A stretch of DNA of 64,000 bases, taken from positions 128,970 to 192,969 of the forward strand of contig JAXMOL010000007.1 in the NCBI GenBank assembly GCA_034669905.1. The letters are read 5' to 3'. This document shows positions 36,359-45,738 of the stretch, one piece after another. The position numbers and the translations under genes are program-made. Origin of the DNA: Candidatus Hydrogenedentota bacterium. Lineage in GTDB: Bacteria > Hydrogenedentota > Hydrogenedentia > Hydrogenedentales > JAEUWI01. Under the pieces are notes generated by a model. That model saw nothing but the letters and a program-made list of their open reading frames with translations, had not been told where the DNA came from and did no database searches. The first letter of the stretch is position 1. Every line of letters starts with the position of its first letter.

Positions 36359-37030
36359 ATGAGTCGGGCTTCCTTTCGAAAACCCGGTCGCGTGCTGACT
36401 ATCTGGGGCATCTGCTGTGTAGCTTTCGCCAGTCTTCTGGGTGTCTACGATGTGGTCCTGGCGCGCTATGCCGATGAACTCCGCGAAAACGATTACCGCA
36501 CCTATCTCGGTTTGGCGGCCGTGCACCTGGAAGACAAGGATTATCTGGCCGCGTTGAAACAGGTCGATCAGGCCCTCGTCCTGGCGCCGGAAAACCCCGA
36601 GCCCTATGCCTACGCCGGCGGCATTCATTACCGCCTGAAACATTGGGAGCGCGCTATCGAGCATCTTCAGGCGGCCATTGCCCACGGGGATAGCTCCCGT
36701 GGTCCCCGTATGGATATCGTCTGGTCTCTCATTGAGTTGGGGCGCTTCGAAGAGGCCGCCGCGTTGGGCGAGACCTACGCCGAAGAAGTGGACGACAACA
36801 CAGCCTTGCTTCAGTATGTCGCCGAGGCCTACCTCCGCGCAGAGCAACCGGCGAAGGCCATTCCCGTCCTGGAGCGGGCGCTGGAGGCCTCTCCGGACAA
36901 TCTCTATCAGCTCAGCCGCCTCGCGACAGCCTACGGCGATGTGGGGAATGCGGCGGGCAAGGCCGAGATGCAAGCGCGCATCGACGCCATCCACGATGCC
37001 ATTGGCCAGATGGGCACACGGGTCCAATGA
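36359..37030 (+). CDS. membrane-anchored TPR repeat protein
   Basis: N-terminal TM followed by TPR repeats. Confidence 0.65.
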   Translation: MSRASFRKPGRVLTIWGICCVAFASLLGVYDVVLARYADELRENDYRTYLGLAAVHLEDKDYLAALKQVDQALVLAPENPEPYAYAGGIHYRLKHWERAIEHLQAAIAHGDSSRGPRMDIVWSLIELGRFEEAAALGETYAEEVDDNTALLQYVAEAYLRAEQPAKAIPVLERALEASPDNLYQLSRLATAYGDVGNAAGKAEMQARIDAIHDAIGQMGTRVQ

Positions 37031-37992
37031 GCATGTCGACCGAGGGTGCCACCAGGGCGCCCGGTGTTTCCCTGCTTTGCGTCGTGAAAAACGGGGCACC
37101 CTACCTAGAGCGGGGCCTTCCCCTTCTCCGTGCCCAGGTCTATGACGGCCCCGTGGAAATCATTTGTGTCGATTCCGGGTCCACCGATGAGACCCTCGCG
37201 CTTATGAAAGAACACGGCGCCCACATCCACGAAATAGCACCCGAAGCATTTCACCACGGTCGGACCCGCAACCTGGCCGCTTCGCTGGCCTCCCACGAAA
37301 TCCTGGTGTGTCTCTCGCAGGACGCTATCCCCACCGACACCGACTGGCTGCGCCATCTCGTCGCCCCTTTCGAAGATCCCCGCGTCGGTGCGGTCTATGG
37401 AAAGCAGACCGCGCCACCCGACATGGGATTACGTCGTCGCCAGGGATTGGCCAGTGAATATCCCGACGTGCGCCAGGTGCGTGACCCCGAGGCCATCACC
37501 GCCTACACGCCCGGCCATTTTCGATTCTCCAATGCCAACGCGGCCGTGCGCAAATCCTGCTGGGAGCGTTTCCCCTGGGATGAATCCGTCTTGCTGGCGG
37601 AAGACCAGGGCTTCTGTCGCGACGTGCTCTACGATGGCAGGGTCGTCATTTATGAACCGAAGGCCGAAGTGATTCATGGACATGACCGCAGCCTGCTCGG
37701 GGAATTTAAATACGCCTTCGACAACGGGGTGTCCCTGTCTCGTCTGGGGATCTTGAATAATCCCGACGTGGGGGGAGAACTGGGTTATGGCCTGCGGCGG
37801 ATGAAGACAGACCTGGGCTACTTTGCGCGCAAGGGCCGAATCGACTGTGTGGCGATCTCTTTGCTTTCCTTCGCCCTGCGCTACGTGGCCGTGCAGTTGG
37901 GGAAGCGAGAAGGGCAATTGCCTGCGTGGTTCTTACGCCGCTTTTCCGAGATGCACCAGAAGATGGGGACTGCACCGACGTCACGTAGGTGA
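37027..37992 (+). CDS. GT2-family glycosyltransferase
   Basis: SLLCVVKNGAPYL...DSGSTDET...QDA GT-A signature. Confidence 0.82.
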   Translation: MSMSTEGATRAPGVSLLCVVKNGAPYLERGLPLLRAQVYDGPVEIICVDSGSTDETLALMKEHGAHIHEIAPEAFHHGRTRNLAASLASHEILVCLSQDAIPTDTDWLRHLVAPFEDPRVGAVYGKQTAPPDMGLRRRQGLASEYPDVRQVRDPEAITAYTPGHFRFSNANAAVRKSCWERFPWDESVLLAEDQGFCRDVLYDGRVVIYEPKAEVIHGHDRSLLGEFKYAFDNGVSLSRLGILNNPDVGGELGYGLRRMKTDLGYFARKGRIDCVAISLLSFALRYVAVQLGKREGQLPAWFLRRFSEMHQKMGTAPTSRR

Positions 37993-38054
37993 CACAACGA
38001 CGCAATCGTTTGGGCGGAACAGGTGACGGTGGTCGGGGACAGAATATCAGCCAG

Positions 38055-38208
38055 TCGGGGCTGTCCCCCTCTTACACAGCCACGCGACATGCACCCCGTA
38101 CCCATTCAGCATTTCCTAGACCTTGAAGCCTTGCCCGGATACGCCCCTTCAGCTTGTCGACCAGCCGGGGTTAGTGCGCGTGTCGTTTGAGAGGGGGACA
38201 GCCCCGAC
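38055..38208. repeat. MITE/REP-like unit bounded by perfect 18-bp inverted repeats (GTCGGGGCTGTCCCCCTC / GAGGGGGACAGCCCCGAC)
   Basis: The two arms are exact reverse complements, 118 bp apart. Confidence 0.55.
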
Positions 38209-38401
38209 GTCCGGGTGAATGGGTGTTTTCCGAGTAGCCCGTTTTCGCCCATGGGCGTATATGGCTTCGGCCAGATCGTAGCGTCGGTGCAGTCCCCGGG
38301 GACAGCCCCGACGTCCGGGTGAATGGGTGTTTTCCGAGTAGCCCGTTTTCGCCCATGGGCGTATATGGCTTCGGCCAGATCGTAGCGTCGGTGCAGTCCC
38401 C
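38191..38401 (+). repeat. tandem duplication (2 x ~104 bp) of a palindromic intergenic repeat unit
   Basis: Units 38194-38297 and 38298-38401 are near-identical. Each starts GGGGACAGCCCCGAC and ends CGTCGGTGCAGTCCCC. Confidence 0.8.
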
Positions 38402-38405
38402 GCGC

Positions 38406-39272
38406 CTACGCGGTGGCGGCGAGGTAGGCCTTCAGGGCGTCGCGCCAGGGGGGCATGATGTCGAGGTTCTGTGCCTGGGCATGGCGGTTCTCAAGGACCG
38501 AATAGGCCGGCCGCCGGACGGGGGACTGAAACTCTGCCGACGTCGTGGCCGTGAGCTGGACCTGCGTGTTGGTTTCCTCAAAGATTGCCTGCGCAAACTC
38601 ATACCACGAGCATGCGCCCTGACACGTGGCGTGGTAGAGTCCTGGCTCGCCCTTTTCCGCCAGGAGCCGCATCTGTTTGGCGAGGGCACCGGTAAAGGTG
38701 GGCGTGGTGATTTCGTCGGTGACCACCTTAACCTCCGGACGGGTGGCGGCGAGGTGGAGCATAGTGCCGATAAAGTTTCGGCCCCCCTTGGCCCGACAGG
38801 CCGCCTCCCCATAGATGGCTGCCGTGCGCACGATGAGGTGGTCGTCCAACACCGAAGCGATGAGGTGTTCGCCCGCCAATTTACTCGCCGCATAGACACT
38901 CAGCGGTTGGGGGCGGTCCGTCTCGACGAAGGGCTCGGTGGCGCCATCGCCGAAGACATAATCGGTGCTCACGTGGAGCATGCGTGCGCCAATGGCCTTA
39001 CAGGTGACGGCGAGATTCCGCGCGCCCGTCGCGTTGACGCCAAAGGCCAGGGCCGGGTCTTGCTCGCAGAGGGCCACGTTGTGGGCGGCGGCCGTATTGA
39101 CGACGATATCGGGGCGGATTTCTTCCAGGAGGGCCGTGACTGCCGGTCCGTCGGTCACATCGAGGATATGGCCCTCTCCATCCAGGTCGGCACGGTGCAA
39201 TTCGGTGTCGGAAAACACCGCACAAAGGTCATGCCCCAATTGGCCTTCTGAACCTACGATTAAGACCCGCAT
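38406..39272 (-). CDS. rmlD: dTDP-4-dehydrorhamnose reductase
   Basis: MRVLIVGSEGQLG start. RmlD substrate-binding domain pattern. 289 aa. The ORF extension to 39425 was not used. Confidence 0.85.
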   Translation of the reverse strand: MRVLIVGSEGQLGHDLCAVFSDTELHRADLDGEGHILDVTDGPAVTALLEEIRPDIVVNTAAAHNVALCEQDPALAFGVNATGARNLAVTCKAIGARMLHVSTDYVFGDGATEPFVETDRPQPLSVYAASKLAGEHLIASVLDDHLIVRTAAIYGEAACRAKGGRNFIGTMLHLAATRPEVKVVTDEITTPTFTGALAKQMRLLAEKGEPGLYHATCQGACSWYEFAQAIFEETNTQVQLTATTSAEFQSPVRRPAYSVLENRHAQAQNLDIMPPWRDALKAYLAATA

Positions 39273-39644
39273 CGTGCTGCTCCTTCTGTGGGGGAGTGGT
39301 GCCCGCCGTTGGGGAAGGGGTACATCTCGCCCGTCCCAATGCCTGAAGCCAGTATGGCACAGGATTTCGAGAGGGGGCAACCACTGCGGGGGGAGAATCT
39401 CCCTATCGTGTATCTCAAACGGCAACCTATCTCAGGGACTGTCTCGCCCCTGGTGATGACGCCTTGGCGACGTAGGCGATGGACGGCTATTGTCATAGCG
39501 ACAGGGAAGAACACGGGATAGGGCGTGGCCGTCCCGTCGTTAGCGAAGTTTGCGGCGGGTCAGTCCTCGTCACGACAGGACACCCACCGCCGTCAGCGTT
39601 TTACGGCGCAGGATATGCCGACCTCTCGCCCACCTCCAGTGAAA

Positions 39645-40226
39645 TTACACTTCGGATGTTCTGATGGTCAGGTAGGTATCGTCGTCCATGGCCGACAGGA
39701 CGATTACGCGCGCGTTATCGGTCCAGAATTTACAAAGCTGAGCCAGGTTGATTTCCAGCAGATCAAAAGGGGCACAGCGTGTCACCACAAAAAAGTTCTG
39801 TTGAAATGTTGCGGGCCAAATGAAATTTTTAACTAAGCTGCGCTCTTCACTTGTATGGCAGGTATAGACATAGTCGAAGGAGCGCACTGTTTTCTTTGAC
39901 CTACCATGGGTATTCATCTTTGCTGTCCGAACGAGCCGTTCGACTCCAACCAAACAACAATCTTTGTCGTTGTCCAGAAAGTCGATGAGAAAACAAGATA
40001 TCCCATCCAGGAGCAGGGCTTCATCCCATCCACGTGATTGGGAGAGGTCTAGATGGAGCGGGGTTTCGCCATCGAAATTTTCGGGAGTCAATAGGCGTAC
40101 TTCCCGATGGCCCAGTTCGAGATTGTCATACAGCAGTTCGAACAGGTTGCTGAAATTCTGGTTGTATACGACTTCGACGCGCTCCTGCGCAGATTGCACG
40201 CTTAACTCCATAAATTTAGTGCTCAT
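39645..40226 (-). CDS. hypothetical protein, low-GC orphan (possible immunity/SUKH-like)
   Basis: About 48% GC against 62% in the flanks. No recognisable catalytic motifs. Confidence 0.5.
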   Translation of the reverse strand: MSTKFMELSVQSAQERVEVVYNQNFSNLFELLYDNLELGHREVRLLTPENFDGETPLHLDLSQSRGWDEALLLDGISCFLIDFLDNDKDCCLVGVERLVRTAKMNTHGRSKKTVRSFDYVYTCHTSEERSLVKNFIWPATFQQNFFVVTRCAPFDLLEINLAQLCKFWTDNARVIVLSAMDDDTYLTIRTSEV

Positions 40227-40455
40227 GAATCAAACTCCCTATGCCCGCTATTTCGACTCTCCGCGAGGCCCCGTATCAACCCTTCACCAACCTCCATCGT
40301 TTCGCGCGACCACTCCACAATAACCAATGGGTAGCCTGCAGGCCAACGGAAATATCCCACACCACAACCCCTAACCTGACGGACCAGAAAGCCCCATGCT
40401 ATACTTGCGCCTTCGTCGTGGTTCATTCTTTCCTCGTGCAAAAAGGTGTTGGTTC

Positions 40456-41617
40456 CGTGTCCCCTATCGCTGTTGCGGCCGATTTAAGTTGTCTGATTTC
40501 CCGCCCCATGACGGGCGTGGGCTACTACACCCGCAATATCTTTCAGGAACTGGACCGCAGCGCCGTGGACCTGCGTCCTATCGCGGCATCGGCCCAACCC
40601 CGTCCCGATGATTTGGACGGCTGTCTCGGGGCCGACCAGGCGTTGCCAACCTACCGCTTTCCCACCCGGTGGAAAAACACCCTGTGGACCCGTGCCGAAT
40701 GGCCGCCCATCGAATGGCTCACCGGAAAGTGCGATATCGTCCATGGCGGCTTCCATCTCCTGCCCCCGTCCCGAAAGGCCAAGCGGGTGGTCACCGTTTT
40801 CGATTTGGCCGGTATGCGGCGGGAAGCCATTCACGACGACGCAGACCAGGCCATGCACCGCCGCCTGCTGGCCCATGCCATCCCCCGGGCCGATGGTATC
40901 TTCGCCATTTCGCAGAGTTGTCGCCAGGATGTCATCGAACTATTGGGGGCCGACCCCGCCAAGGTCTACGTAGTCCCCGGTGGGGTCTTCCTCGATGAAT
41001 TCGAAGCAGCCCCCGACGGTGCCCGTATGAAGGCCCTGCGCGCGACCCACGGTATCCGGGGTGACTTTCTCATCCACCTTGGTACCCTGGAGCCGCGCAA
41101 GAATCTCGCCCGCCTCGTGACGGTCTACGCTCGGCTGGCCGAACGCCATGGGGACCTGCCCCAACTGGTCCTGGCGGGGGGGAAGGGCTGGATGTATGAG
41201 CCCATCTTCGAGGCCATCGAATCCCACGGCCTGACGGACCAGGTCATCTGCACGGGCTACCTTTCCCGCGAAGATGCCGTGACCCTTCTGCACCATGCCC
41301 AGGCCTGTGTCTATCCCTCGCTGTACGAAGGCTTCGGATTGCCCGTGCTGGAGGCCATGGCGGCCCGGACGCCGGTGCTGACCTCCAACGTGTCCTCCCT
41401 CCCCGAAGTCATCGGCGATACGGGGATTCTCGTGGAGCCCGAAGACGAAGCCAGTCTGGAAGTCGGATTGACCCGCCTCCTCTTCGAGCGAGACGACGAA
41501 GGCGACCGGATTGCCGCCGCGTCGGAACGGGCCCAGGGGATGACCTGGCGGCACAGCGCACAGCGCCTCCTTCAGTCCTACCGTGATGTGTTGGACGGCG
41601 TGGGGTATGCCCCATGA
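40456..41617 (+). CDS. GT4-family glycosyltransferase
   Basis: GT-B pattern with EX7E (YEGFGLPVLEAMAARTPVL). The GTG at 40456 with an upstream AAAGG is preferred over the track ATG at 40241, which would abut the divergent gene. Confidence 0.78.
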
Positions 41618-43104
41618 CGGAAACTTCGGAGAAACGGCTCGCCCGGGAAACAGCGAAGGTCGGGGTGAACGTCGGCCTGCTATTGGCCGCCCGCATCGCC
41701 GGACTTGCCATGAGCCTCGTCCAACTCGGAATTATCTTTCGCTCCCTGGGGCTTTCCGCTCAGGGCGAATACCAAGCGGCCTTTAATTTTGCATCCCTCT
41801 TCACCGTCTTTGCGACCCTGGGCATTCAGCGCCTCCTGGTCCGCGATATTGCCCGGGACCCCAAGGTGGCGTGGTCCTATGTGTGGACCGCCCTGTCGGT
41901 CGTAACAGTCCTTTCCACGCTATGCATGACGGCCATGTATTTCCTCAAGCGGGATTCAGGGAGTGCCGACCTCGTGTTGTGGGCGGGGGCCTATGTGGTG
42001 GTGACCTGGGCCTTGCAGCAGCCTTTCGAAGCCCTCTTGATAGCCCGGGAGCGGATGGGGCTGGTGGCCCTGCTCAATGGGGTGGCTGCTGCCCTGAAGC
42101 TTGGCGCCGTGTGGGCCTGCTTTGACCCACCCATCCCGCCGAGCGACTATGTCTATGACCCCGTTTCGGTGCACCAGGTGGTCGCCGTGGCCAATGGGGT
42201 CGGGTTGCTCTGTTTCATCGCGGTGGCCATGACCCTGGGCGGGGTGACGTGGCCCCGCTTGCGCCTTCGGGCGGCCCTTTCGCAGGTAAGGGAATGTTTC
42301 CCTTTCGCCCTGGCCATGCTCTGCAGTTGGGTCTATTTCAAATCCGACATGGAACTGTTGCATCATTTTCGCGGCAGCAGCGATGCGGGAATCTATGCCC
42401 CCGTACAAAAGCTCATGGAACCCCTCCTCATGGTGGCGGGACTCTGGGGTACGGCCATCTTTCCCGCCTTGTGTCGCCTTTCCCACACGGATGCGGAAGG
42501 CTTCGCCCATATCAAGGCGACCTCCGTGCGACTTGCCCTGTTGCTGGCCTGTCCCATGGCCGTCGGACTCGGATTGTTAGCGCGCCCCATCTTACTCTTG
42601 CTGACCGGGGGCGAGACGGACTTGTTGGAGTCCATTTACGTATTGCAGATTGTGGCCATTATCCTGCCGCTTTTTTATCTTAATGGGATTGGACAGGAGT
42701 TTCTCTATGCCGCCCATCGCAACGCCTTCGTGGTCATTGCCTATCTGGTGGCCGGCATCGTGAGTGTAGGGCTCAACCTGTGGGCCATTCCCCAATACGG
42801 CGTGGTGGGCCTGGCGTGGGTGGCGGTCGTCGCAAATGGCGTCGTGAGCCTGTTTTTCTGCGTCGGTATGCGGCAGGAGATCGACTTTGGCGGGCTCGTC
42901 GTTCTGCTCGTCAAGACCGCCATCGCCTGTGGCTTCATGTGGGTGGTGGCCTGGTACGGCGCGGCACTCCATCTCCTCGTCGGGATTGCGGCGGGCGCGG
43001 TGTGTTACGGGCTTGTCCAGTGGTTTCTGGGCACGCTCAATAAACAGGAGCGGGCCCTGGTTCTTCATGCGGCGGAAGGACTTCGGGCTAAGTTGGGGCG
43101 TTGA
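41614..43104 (+). CDS. Wzx-like polysaccharide flippase (MOP superfamily)
   Basis: About 12-14 TM helices. Polysacc_synt-like N-terminus. Confidence 0.8.
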   Translation: MTETSEKRLARETAKVGVNVGLLLAARIAGLAMSLVQLGIIFRSLGLSAQGEYQAAFNFASLFTVFATLGIQRLLVRDIARDPKVAWSYVWTALSVVTVLSTLCMTAMYFLKRDSGSADLVLWAGAYVVVTWALQQPFEALLIARERMGLVALLNGVAAALKLGAVWACFDPPIPPSDYVYDPVSVHQVVAVANGVGLLCFIAVAMTLGGVTWPRLRLRAALSQVRECFPFALAMLCSWVYFKSDMELLHHFRGSSDAGIYAPVQKLMEPLLMVAGLWGTAIFPALCRLSHTDAEGFAHIKATSVRLALLLACPMAVGLGLLARPILLLLTGGETDLLESIYVLQIVAIILPLFYLNGIGQEFLYAAHRNAFVVIAYLVAGIVSVGLNLWAIPQYGVVGLAWVAVVANGVVSLFFCVGMRQEIDFGGLVVLLVKTAIACGFMWVVAWYGAALHLLVGIAAGAVCYGLVQWFLGTLNKQERALVLHAAEGLRAKLGR

Positions 43105-43115
43105 TTCAAAGCCGG

Positions 43116-43222
43116 GAGGGGGACAGCCCCGACTATCGAATACGCTACCCCCTATTGACGTCACCTATTCCGCCCACACGGTAGACTCGCACGACGTGAG
43201 ACACAACGTCGGTGCAGTCCCC
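43116..43222 (+). repeat. third copy of the GGGGACAGCCCCGAC ... CGTCGGTGCAGTCCCC palindromic repeat
   Basis: Same terminal motifs as the 38.2 kb units with a different internal sequence. Located 12 bp after the flippase stop. Confidence 0.65.
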
Positions 43223-43264
43223 GGCATCGCGTGGCACGACGTAATCTTTCCAGTCTTGCCAATA

Positions 43265-44434
43265 TTATTTCGGCGGCCGTTGGGGCGTCTTTCGTTTCTC
43301 TGTGCTCCGCGTGCCGGTGGGAAAGTCCGGGAACGTGGGGAAGGTGGGCCCCGTCGATTTTTCCGTACCTTGCTTCGATTCGGGCCGGGGGAACTCGGGG
43401 AAGGCAGGGGCCACGGGCCGCTGGGGAATGGTCATGTTGGGGCGGGCGGCAGCGCCGGGTGATTCCACCTCGGGTCGGGCCATACGCTGCTGCATCCGCA
43501 GTGCAGGGTGACTCATATCGAGGGGCGGCAAGGTGGGCGGTTTCATTTTCGGTGGCCAGGGTTCCGCATCGGCGGCCTGGAGATCCTGCAGGGTGGCCAG
43601 ATGCTGTCGTAACTGCTCGGGATCCTGCAGCAGCTGGTTGATGAAGGGCCCATATTCCTGGGCCAGCAGCGGGTCCCGATGAATGAGTCGATTCCAGTAG
43701 CGTATCCAGGGGCGTGTCTCATCGTTGCGTGCCCGGTTGATATTCCGCAAGTGCCAGAGCCAGAGTTCCCGGGGATGCTGGTAGAGCTCCGTGGGCAGGG
43801 CTGCACCCGAATCCAACGTGGCGGCCCCCAGTTTTTCCAGTTGCTCCCACCAGGGGAGCACGGACTCGTAGGCCTCCGGGGTGTCGAGTACCGCCTGAAA
43901 AGCCGTGCGCAGGGAAGCCATCCACTCCGGGGCCTCCAGGAAAGCATCGTAGGCCCCCTGCAGGGCTTCGGGCAGGGGGCGGACCTGGCTGGGGTTGGTG
44001 AGAAAGCGCATGGCCACATCGGGGTGGCCCCGCAGATACTGGACCGCCCGGGTCATCTCGGGGCTGGCCTTGGCCTTGTCGAGCTCCGTGCGGACCAGGT
44101 TCTCCACGGCGTTACGGAGGGCGGGGTTTTCCCGCAACTGGGCATAAAACGTATCGAACCGGGATTGGGCCTCGGGGCTTTCACCCAGGACCTCGTCAAA
44201 CTGGGTGTCCAGATTACGCAAGGACGGCTGAGAACGTGCCCGCCACCAGGCCGTCTCGGTAGCCGCCAGTTCCGGCAGGCGGGCGAGTTCTTTCAAGTAG
44301 CCCACGTGATTGGGCAGGGCCGCAGGCTCCTCCTGCAGGAAAGCACGGAGGGCAGGGGGAAAGGGGGCGGCAGGCCTGGGCGGGACCGGTCCGTCCGCCG
44401 CCAACAGCCAACAGAAGACCCCGACCCACATCAT
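43265..44434 (-). CDS. hypothetical secreted helical-repeat protein with Pro-rich C-terminus
   Basis: Signal peptide. Repeated helical motifs. PEFP/PTFP low-complexity tail. Confidence 0.55.
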   Translation of the reverse strand: MMWVGVFCWLLAADGPVPPRPAAPFPPALRAFLQEEPAALPNHVGYLKELARLPELAATETAWWRARSQPSLRNLDTQFDEVLGESPEAQSRFDTFYAQLRENPALRNAVENLVRTELDKAKASPEMTRAVQYLRGHPDVAMRFLTNPSQVRPLPEALQGAYDAFLEAPEWMASLRTAFQAVLDTPEAYESVLPWWEQLEKLGAATLDSGAALPTELYQHPRELWLWHLRNINRARNDETRPWIRYWNRLIHRDPLLAQEYGPFINQLLQDPEQLRQHLATLQDLQAADAEPWPPKMKPPTLPPLDMSHPALRMQQRMARPEVESPGAAARPNMTIPQRPVAPAFPEFPRPESKQGTEKSTGPTFPTFPDFPTGTRSTEKRKTPQRPPK

Positions 44435-45738
44435 GCCAAATCAAGCTCCGCTGCCAGATCGAGTACGGTAAAGCGATTGCGGAGGAACCGCGCCCGGGCC
44501 TGGCCGTTGTGGTATTCGGCTGTGCTCACGCTCAGTGCTTCGGGCGTGATGGGGCCACCGGCCGCCTGGATGCAGGCCGCCACGGTCGCAGCGGGTTGGA
44601 GCTCCTTGCGGGCTTCTTCCCGAAGTCGGGGCAGCTGATATTTGAGGGCTTCGATTTCGGCCAGGAAGGCCTCGTGGCCCAGCCGTTTCTCATGCCATTG
44701 GGCGCGCACTTCCGCACCCACCGTCTCGCCCCAGTCGGAGGCGATGGCGGCTTCAATGTGGGCCTCATCGGTCTGGGCCCGCCAGAGGGCTTCTCCATCG
44801 AGGCGCTCGGGATCCTGCTTGAGGATTTTCTCCCAGAGTCCCAAGGTGTAAATGGTGGCCACCCCCACCTGCGCGCCGTGCAGATCCTGGCCCGTGTTAT
44901 ACAGGGCATGTTTCATGTCGAGATAGTGGGAGATGAGGTGTTCCCCGCCCGAAGCGGGTGCGGAGGAACCGGCGATGACCATGCCGAAGCCGCTGAGGAG
45001 GAGGGCCTCCAGCACGAGGTGGATACCTGCCGGATCGCCCGTGCCAATGGACGTGGCTTCGCGAAAGAGCCGCTCCTGGATGCCGTCATTGAATTCCCGG
45101 GGGCGATCGCAGTAATAGCCGCCTCGGAGTAAGTGGCAGGCCCGCCAGTCGGCCGCCGAAGAACACTTGGAAAGGAAATCGGCCACACCGGCAGCGGCCA
45201 TGGGTTGTGGCGCCGTCGCCACCACGTCGGGGTCGGCAAAGACCCCTAAGGCCGGGGTGCACGGCAGGGTGCGCTTCAGACCACGGACCTTGAGTGCCAC
45301 AATGGCGGAGGTGTAGCCATTCATGGAGGCTGCCGTGGGGTAGAGGAGCACGGGCTTCCGCTGTCTGCTGCCCGCGTCTTTCGCGAGGTCGCACAAGGTG
45401 CCGGAGCCGATGGCAATGTAGCCGTCTGCGTCCTGGCCCGCTGCGGCCACTTCGTCGGCCCGCTCCTGGGTCGCTTCAAAGGCTTCTGCGGGGTAGGTCG
45501 AGGAGAGGATGGAAATACCCATATCGGCCAGGGCCTCGTGAACCCGATTTTGCGCTGCCGCCAGGGTATTTTCATCGGCGACGACCAGGCAGGTCTTCAG
45601 CCCCTTGTCGCGGGCGAAGGTTGCGAGGGCCACGGCTGCGTCGGACCCGATGGAGCAGCGTTCAATGGGGAGTTCGTGGCGTTGACCGCATTCGCAGTCA
45701 AAGGCGGTGCCGAGGGTATGCCATCCCAGGGTTTTCAT
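44431..45738 (-). CDS. Iron-containing alcohol dehydrogenase / DHQS-like family protein (glycerol-1-phosphate dehydrogenase-like)
   Basis: GSGTLCDLAK glycine-rich NAD motif. Conserved metal-binding His in the C-terminal half. 4-nt overlap with the downstream gene. Confidence 0.65.
   Translation of the reverse strand: MKTLGWHTLGTAFDCECGQRHELPIERCSIGSDAAVALATFARDKGLKTCLVVADENTLAAAQNRVHEALADMGISILSSTYPAEAFEATQERADEVAAAGQDADGYIAIGSGTLCDLAKDAGSRQRKPVLLYPTAASMNGYTSAIVALKVRGLKRTLPCTPALGVFADPDVVATAPQPMAAAGVADFLSKCSSAADWRACHLLRGGYYCDRPREFNDGIQERLFREATSIGTGDPAGIHLVLEALLLSGFGMVIAGSSAPASGGEHLISHYLDMKHALYNTGQDLHGAQVGVATIYTLGLWEKILKQDPERLDGEALWRAQTDEAHIEAAIASDWGETVGAEVRAQWHEKRLGHEAFLAEIEALKYQLPRLREEARKELQPAATVAACIQAAGGPITPEALSVSTAEYHNGQARARFLRNRFTVLDLAAELDLA

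Follow-up and report, generated by a model that had tools for sequence, protein, structure and literature searches.

The window, by which is meant the whole 64-kb stretch of Hydrogenedentota DNA that was analyzed, contains four complete 104-nt repeat units, and these are very probably REPIN-type non-autonomous elements of a REPIN/RAYT-type family. Units of the same build are dispersed through related genomes, occur or are missing at orthologous sites, form arrays whose size changes between strains, and adjoin a gene for a RAYT-like enzyme in four related lineages. The idea of dispersed REP-like or miniature mobile palindromes, offered in a first-pass annotation of this DNA, is borne out by the dispersal, by the presence or absence at orthologous sites, and by the RAYT-type gene that units bracket in relatives.

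In the mechanism that we propose, each unit would comprise two inverted REP-like motifs, each a nested imperfect palindrome (GGGG-ACAG-CCCC), with a spacer of fixed length and free sequence between them, and would be spread in trans by a single-copy tyrosine transposase of the REP-associated Y1/HUH type (RAYT). This enzyme would act on the element folded as single-stranded DNA, in which the ends pair as a 15-bp stem with two conserved mismatches, and it probably recognizes and moves the units in that mismatched, folded form. Insertion would proceed without target duplication. In the window, U1 would have been inserted at the end of a gene for a GT2 glycosyltransferase, and U2 would have been duplicated recently in tandem.

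Repeat units of the window and their anatomy

Allowing up to two mismatches, GGGGACAGCCCCGAC has 8 sites in the 64-kb window as against 0.33 expected, a number that none of 100 shuffles reaches, and these sites are the paired termini of four units that run from GGGGACAGCCCCGAC (the A-end) to GTCGGTGCAGTCCCC (the B-end) (Table 1). The first-pass annotation had counted three copies. The inverted 18-mer on which it relied is real but lies at 38054-38071 rather than 38055-38072, with its arms 119 rather than 118 nt apart, and it is the terminus of a complete unit, U1, that had been missed. The tandem duplication of about 104 bp that was seen at 38194-38401 was correctly identified, U2 and U3 being gapless and 100% identical over 104 nt as assembled; the copy downstream of the flippase gene is U4, and the common 3' motif, CGTCGGTGCAGTCCCC, does terminate every unit. 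The termini and a central TTYCGCCCA are common to the window units; elsewhere the similarity of U1 to U4 is about 74%, with U2 more divergent. Among the four units there are three unrelated interiors. A covariance model of the family gives significant scores in the 64-kb window at the four units only (77-81 bits, the opposite strand giving about 26 bits). CTCTT at the start and GAGAG at the finish of the U1-U2 spacer represent the left flank, RRGAG, that is conserved next to each of the two units. A doubtful degenerate unit-like match (12.4 bits, E about 0.6) was also noted at 39434-39536 on the minus strand, upstream of rmlD.

Table 1. Units, neighboring genes and related loci. Positions are those of the window unless a related locus (L number) is named.
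Feature	Location	Strand	Description
GT2 glycosyltransferase gene	37027-37992	+	Native C terminus replaced by codons read from U1
U1	37965-38068	-	104 nt; B-end 37965-37979, A-end 38054-38068; covariance model R1 81.1 bits
Spacer between A-ends of U1 and U2	38069-38193		125 nt; no covariance-model match
U2	38194-38297	+	104 nt; central motif TTCGCCCA at 38244-38251; covariance model 76.9 bits
U3	38298-38401	+	104 nt; exact head-to-tail repeat of U2, zero gap
rmlD (dTDP-4-dehydrorhamnose reductase)	38406-39272	-	Convergent with GT2; stop codon 4 nt from U3; RmlD_sub_bind 275 bits
Polysaccharide flippase gene	41614-43104	+	Upstream of U4
U4	43119-43222	+	104 nt; left flank GGGAG 43114-43118; central motif TTCCGCCCA at 43167-43175; covariance model 78.9 bits
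Gene, family not assigned	43265-44434	-	Convergent, downstream of U4
Array-size locus	L107 7535-8014; L108 5028-5133; L029 5039-5489		Strain-level difference, 1 versus 4 units
L125			3 units, RAYT gene, 1 inverted unit
L126 / L127 (NCBI Hydrogenedentes MAGs)			4 / 3 units, RAYT gene, 3 / 2 units
L128/129			1 unit, then RAYT gene
TGCTAC(C/T)AT intervals	L094 1158-1205; L125 3110-3154; L126 3982-4000; L128 213-270		Between last upstream unit and RAYT start

The region is a polysaccharide-synthesis cluster. Gene context, here and at the other loci, is based on a simple codon-usage gene finder that recovers the genes of the window with Pfam support. The convergent gap between the GT2 gene and rmlD is occupied by U1, the 125-nt spacer, U2, and U3, and U4 begins 14 nt past the flippase stop codon, ahead of the convergent gene of unassigned family. 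The claim that all copies are intergenic and lie at gene 3' ends holds as regards the proximity to 3' ends, but U1 overlaps the end of GT2: it covers the final 28 nt of the gene, so that the seven terminal codons (TAPTSRR) and the stop codon are unit sequence, with the preceding Gly codon straddling the boundary. The protein ends in ..KMGTAPTSRR* in the window versus ..KMGL* in orthologs and, judged from these sequences, the insertion of U1 is what rewrote the last GT2 codons. In-frame B-ends give the same (G)TAPTS... tail to unrelated proteins, namely GT2 (37966-37992) and an acyltransferase in L007 (about 795-812), with the C terminus of P0001 also listed, which suggests that insertions at gene ends recurrently rewrite C termini. 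The plus-strand open reading frame at 38319-39251, which had been suspected of being an artifact of the tandem array, is spurious, since it is antisense to rmlD with its 275-bit RmlD_sub_bind match. It should also be noted that the divergent spacer between rmlD and the GT4 gene (39273-40240) is about 970 nt long in the window versus 185-292 nt in relatives and contains an open reading frame (39645-40226, minus strand) with no Pfam match.

Across the family, 280 units were counted in 115 DNA stretches (676 kb) of related Hydrogenedentota, taken from MAGs and metagenomes, with lengths of 96-107 nt and a mode of 104 nt. What is conserved is the two nearly invariant 15-nt ends, the RRGAG left flank, the central TTCGCCA motif, and the length (101-106 nt); GGGGAC(A/G)GCCCCGAC and its near-inverse are separated by 74 ± 2 nt in the 4 window units and in the 280 overall. 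In the left flank, positions -1 to -3 are G in 95%, A in 77%, and G in 71%, and this RRGAG beside the A-end may be the target or cleavage site of the enzyme. The base after the B-end is G in 88% and the sequence beyond it is unbiased. The central motif, GTTCGCCACG, lies at the exact midpoint, with a GCC core conserved at more than 90% and the form TTCGCCA(C/A)G kept across the family, and on either side of it are the two variable arms of about 33 nt. The A-end and B-end pair as a 15-bp stem, in which 97.9% of the stem cells are paired; compensatory changes are found at two stem pairs (C-G to U-A in 7 units and A-U to C-G in 9), giving 16 double-change cells versus 2.1 in shuffles. The mismatches are themselves conserved, the one at stem position 7 being purine-A in 131 of 134 distinct units and the other lying at position 10 or moved to 11.

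The interiors have no structure beyond that stem. Folding, which had been put forward as a check on the units, brings out the terminal stem alone with no consensus interior helix, whether by single-unit folds, averaged pair probabilities, or RNAalifold (13 pairs only). In-register complementarity of the spacer arms is 0.504, versus 0.504 in shuffles, the interior-only folding energy shows no excess (mean z about 0), and a search of Rfam with 37000-44500 gave no match at E values up to 1; the reading of the units as structured RNAs is rejected by this combination of results. A terminator scan returned 5 matches versus 5.3 expected, none of which fits the unit stem, and no T-run follows the B-end. 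Target-site duplication, also proposed as a check, was not found: inspection of about 100 flank pairs revealed no direct repeats. Both the lack of target duplication and the exact boundaries of the units are deduced from flank statistics.

Dispersal, divergence, and gain and loss

The exact two-ended pattern matches 40 loci in GTDB species-representative genomes, nearly all in the MAG Co_bin.7 (Candidatus Hydrogenedentota) and three in a second MAG, and 74 loci in JGI/TARA metagenomes; the motif is therefore not confined to the two loci of the window, as it would be under the local duplication that the first-pass annotation named as the alternative. A scan of viral contigs with the unit pattern found no copy. 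Fragments of Co_bin.7 contain at least 90 units, and the window comes from a relative of this MAG, one of whose loci (L009) is syntenic with it at 89% nucleotide identity and bears the U4 ortholog. High copy number together with extragenic location is a REPIN feature that the family displays, the count within the window's own genome being 4 units in the 64 kb that were read. Logan contigs retrieved with the flippase and rmlD of the window are short and broken at units, which is where short-read contigs from the same sample break. In related genomes, the gaps between units contain further recurrent short repeats, and a second dispersed repeat, GGTGCCACCCTCAAACGGAGGAGCG..., which is absent from the window, often adjoins units there (L029 4980-5004 and 5548-5572; also L034, L056, L101, L107, L108, and L113).

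All 138 clusters of units are intergenic. Where both neighboring genes were called, 26 clusters lie between convergent, 28 between co-directional, and 2 between divergent genes; of the 138 stop codons that face a cluster, 53 are no more than 20 nt away from it and 11 overlap it, and the orientation of units relative to the upstream gene is mixed. A cluster contains up to eight units, which meet at stereotyped junctions: B-end to B-end with 0 nt between them (39 cases), A-end to A-end across 28-29 nt (21 cases), or head to tail with 0 nt, as in U2/U3. The A-A linkers have the form CTC...ACG(T)...GAG and conserve only their length and the central ACG(T). Arrays grow and shrink by local duplication and recombination. 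At one locus, strains with 99.8% identical flanks have one unit in one case and four in two relatives (Table 1), and the lone unit combines parts of the first and the last array unit in a chimera, pointing to a deletion in which direct copies recombined.

The interiors of units at different loci are about 54% identical, which is the noise level of the alignment, and pairs above 80% are almost always neighbors in one locus. Interiors are strongly G-rich or C-rich with a bimodal skew, and adjacent units have the same strand sign in 34 of 37 cases, even if inverted. The sign tracks regional skew, as measured in the flanks (Spearman 0.45) and at third codon positions (0.34), which looks like regional mutation bias on unconstrained arms, and the sequences would fit a roughly neutral drift of the arms under such a bias. 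An explanation of the skew by Rho utilization or a 3'-UTR role was discarded, the sign not following the direction of the nearest gene (a rough 12:6 tally by eye). Orthologous units diverge to different extents. Over its 104 nt, U4 differs from its L009 ortholog at 2 positions (2 of 72 in the interior), whereas for U1 and its ortholog in L042 the count is 5 of 59 interior positions, in each case far less than the 16-38% divergence at third positions; the interiors of U1 and U2 are 19% and 31% divergent from those in L048, where third positions differ by 21-34%. A locus-specific functional interior, which the low divergence of U4 and U1 might have indicated, is not upheld, since the L048 interiors diverge like third positions, and in view of this heterogeneity no selection on the arms is claimed.

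Units have been gained and lost between relatives. U1 has orthologs in L042 and L048, and relatives at 91-97% identity have U1 and one U2 in common with the window. The ortholog of U2 in L048 is a single 102-nt copy, and the U2/U3 duplication is specific to the lineage of the window; in L048 a stretch of 215 nt without relation to the 125-nt U1-U2 spacer takes its place. In more distant syntenic relatives, whose GT2 proteins are about 70-75% identical, the gap between GT2 and rmlD is 10 nt (L046/L047) or 29 nt (the JGI contig with P0003) versus 413 nt in the window, and the JGI contig has a gap of 37 nt downstream of the flippase gene. Empty orthologous sites are thus found in relatives, with no filled and empty pair that can be aligned base by base, and the changes in arrays fit recombination. 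Two observations concern the site of U4. Directly after the flippase stop in L046 (8873-8945) and L047 (4961-5033), at about 70% identity, is a different 73-nt palindromic element, GGGACAGTTTCCGAC...GTCGGTAACTGTACCC, which suggests a wider superfamily or a preferred site. Also, in the comparison of window positions 40365-45738 with L009, third-codon divergence is 11-16% in the GT4 and flippase genes but reaches 33-39% in both genes on the right side of U4, a pattern suggesting a recombination boundary at or near the unit.

The linked Y1-type transposase

The RAYT-like gene emerged from the metagenome scan. In the metagenome contig L094, one minus-strand unit and three tandem plus-strand units are followed, 48 nt on, by a gene whose product starts with MARTARIVLPGVAHHITQRGN... 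and contains the motifs NHVHLV and YVEVNPVRAG. This protein matches the Pfam family Y1_Tnp (PF01797; E 1.6e-11, 44.8 bits versus a cut-off of 23), and its sole NCBIfam match is NF047646, REP-associated tyrosine transposase (73.7 bits); the RAYT-like proteins in general score 61-76 bits to NF047646, under its 80-bit equivalog cut-off. A profile of 35 such proteins finds its best structural match in E. coli TnpA-REP (4ER8, E 4e-4), and the TnpA proteins of IS200/IS605 rank behind it. Homologs were then fetched by protein sequence alone (74%, 68%, and 85% identity) and their contigs scanned with the unit model. In all four lineages, represented by L094, L125, L126/L127, and L128/129, units lie 0-60 nt from the RAYT-like gene on every side that is available, with their B-ends toward the gene (Table 1). 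The L126 lineage has an end variant (…CCCCGCC / GGCGAGG…) in which the pairing is preserved.

A family HMM detects no RAYT gene in the window (64 kb), nor in the 40 loci that come from the closest MAG, and finds the gene in 1 of 114 unit-centered loci, which is compatible with a single-copy gene. A search of the first 313 kb with IS608, IS200, and E. coli RAYT sequences gave no transposase match. In L007 (81-1976), a part of Co_bin.7 that is syntenic with L094, the ECF sigma gene and the four units recur as in L094; the RAYT gene is absent, its position being occupied by the 3' end of the acyltransferase gene with its unit-derived ...GTAPTS codons. A conserved TGCTAC(C/T)AT, a candidate -10 promoter element, precedes the start codon of the RAYT gene, in the interval that separates it from the last upstream unit.

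Alternative explanations and relation to known repeat systems

A classical MITE, that is, a deletion derivative of a DDE insertion sequence moved as double-stranded DNA via its terminal inverted repeats, would have several features of these units: imperfect terminal inverted repeats of 15 nt, a small size, a high copy number, and presence or absence between relatives. Coordinated changes at the two ends are also expected where a single protein binds the pair of them as duplex DNA. Such an origin is nevertheless very improbable given the lack of target-site duplication in the roughly 100 flank pairs and the unrelated interiors of dispersed copies, which are unlike those of a MITE burst, and given that no larger element in which these ends enclose a DDE gene was found in 740 kb; the sole transposase that is linked to the units is of the Y1/HUH type. 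It is likewise improbable that the units are immobile, host-encoded structured RNAs or terminators at gene 3' ends. Rfam gives no match, the missing T-run and the chance-level terminator scan dispose of the terminator option of the first-pass annotation, interiors have neither conserved structure nor covariation, the orientation to the upstream gene is mixed, and relatives differ by gains and losses of units, to which a transposase gene is linked; these points are to be set against the position of units after stop codons, their near absence from divergent (promoter-only) spacers, and the ability of the 15-bp stem to form in transcripts of either strand. The units may have a secondary, co-opted effect at the RNA level, and those of the window would at most add 3' stem-loops to convergent transcripts.

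Purely local duplication within this gene cluster accounts for the exact U2/U3 pair and for the fact that close copies are usually neighbors, but hardly any credence can be given to it as the general explanation when there are three unrelated interiors among four units, and when the family's 280 units come from 115 separate pieces of DNA belonging to several MAGs and metagenomes. Integron-type attC sites resemble the units in having about 100 nt, conserved inverted ends with unpaired positions, a variable middle, and a location at gene 3' ends. By direct reading, however, the ends of the units are without the core sites RYYYAAC and GTTRRRY, and the units, which occur dispersed among housekeeping genes, follow one another in alternating orientation at distances of 0-28 nt. 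The linked enzyme is of the Y1/HUH type rather than an integron integrase, and the loci examined have neither an IntI-type integrase near the arrays nor a cassette-like periodicity of ORF plus site, so that an identity with attC sites has a negligible probability.

Within the REPIN/RAYT-type interpretation, a more specific proposal, which is tentative and itself rather unlikely, is that the family is a distinct REPIN class in which an enzyme or host factor reads the mismatched 15-bp stem, a 74-nt open loop measured by its length, and the central TTCGCCA, and that the system may have been domesticated for a role at gene 3' ends, in the protection or processing of transcripts or in chromosome structuring. 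This would explain the fixed ends, center, and length alongside drifting arms, and the persistence of units at the same sites across species. Whatever the status of that proposal, the family adds an uncultured phylum to the range of REPIN-RAYT-type systems, work on which has dealt almost exclusively with Enterobacteria and Pseudomonas, and its fixed-length open-loop spacer with a conserved center is a natural variant that gives a handle on what the transposase recognizes. There are also practical consequences. Short-read assemblies of these genomes are interrupted at units, inside which many contigs end. Units also give rise to spurious ORFs and are able to change the 3' ends of genes, as in the C terminus of GT2; annotators of Hydrogenedentota MAGs should therefore mask them. 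A literature search on repeats in Hydrogenedentes found nothing relevant.

Comparison with characterized small repeats places the family at different distances from each. Correia, ERIC, and RUP elements are also about 100-150 nt long and intergenic, with terminal inverted repeats and potential RNA stem-loops. MITEs of this type have target duplications (TA for Correia) and copies that are similar over their whole length, whereas the Hydrogenedentota family has no duplication and unrelated interiors. The BIMEs of E. coli form arrays of alternating orientation with stereotyped head-head and tail-tail linkers that grow by tandem duplication, as do the arrays described here, but they repeat a 35-nt REP and not a 104-nt doublet. 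IS200/IS605 elements and their miniature derivatives have in common with the family a Y1/HUH transposase (PF01797), imperfect-hairpin ends, the lack of target duplication, and a short conserved sequence at one end. In contrast to these elements, the transposase of the family is nearer to TnpA-REP (4ER8) than to the TnpA of IS608 or ISDra2 in the profile search, its gene is bracketed by whole units and not by simple left-end and right-end hairpins, and it is found in a single unit-centered locus of the 114, whereas units number in the hundreds.

The closest parallel is with the REPIN-RAYT systems of Pseudomonas fluorescens SBW25 (GI-GIII) and E. coli (REP/YafM). REPINs are conserved at their ends only, fall into narrow spacing classes, form tandem arrays, and have adjoining RAYTs (PMC3337134; bioRxiv 10.1101/2022.05.22.493013), and the RAREFAN definition is operational, an inverted doublet of short repeats within about 130 bp (bioRxiv 10.1101/2022.05.22.493013), to which the present family conforms. 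Both have inverted REPs with a nested imperfect palindrome (GGGGACAGCCCC in the family and GGGGGCTTGCCCCC in SBW25 GI), and they agree in copy-unique spacers between conserved ends, narrow spacing, extragenic location, tandem arrays, and lack of target duplication (PMC3337134, PMC3116915), and in the small Y1/HUH transposase gene flanked by elements, which for the present family is seen in relatives, where units lie 0-60 nt from the gene and thus inside the roughly 200 bp of the REPIN-RAYT definition, and not within the window. There are also differences. The canonical REPIN is a full-length hairpin, whereas in the Hydrogenedentota family no hairpin runs through the spacer and shared pairing is limited to the 15-bp terminal stem; the central TTCGCCA(C/A)G is conserved; and the two ends differ at two fixed positions, with a conserved flank at one end only. 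REP/TnpA-REP of E. coli has a 5' tetranucleotide of the GTAG type (PMC3479197), the counterpart of which here is RRGAG at the A-end, with just G at the B-end. The host phylum, Hydrogenedentota, is different, and the transposase is under the NCBIfam cut-off for RAYT equivalogs; a strong link to abundant REPs has been published only for RAYT Groups 2 and 3, from Enterobacteria and Pseudomonas (PMC5581495). The features shared with REPIN/RAYT systems place the family among the known REP/REPIN mobile repeats, newly seen in Hydrogenedentota.
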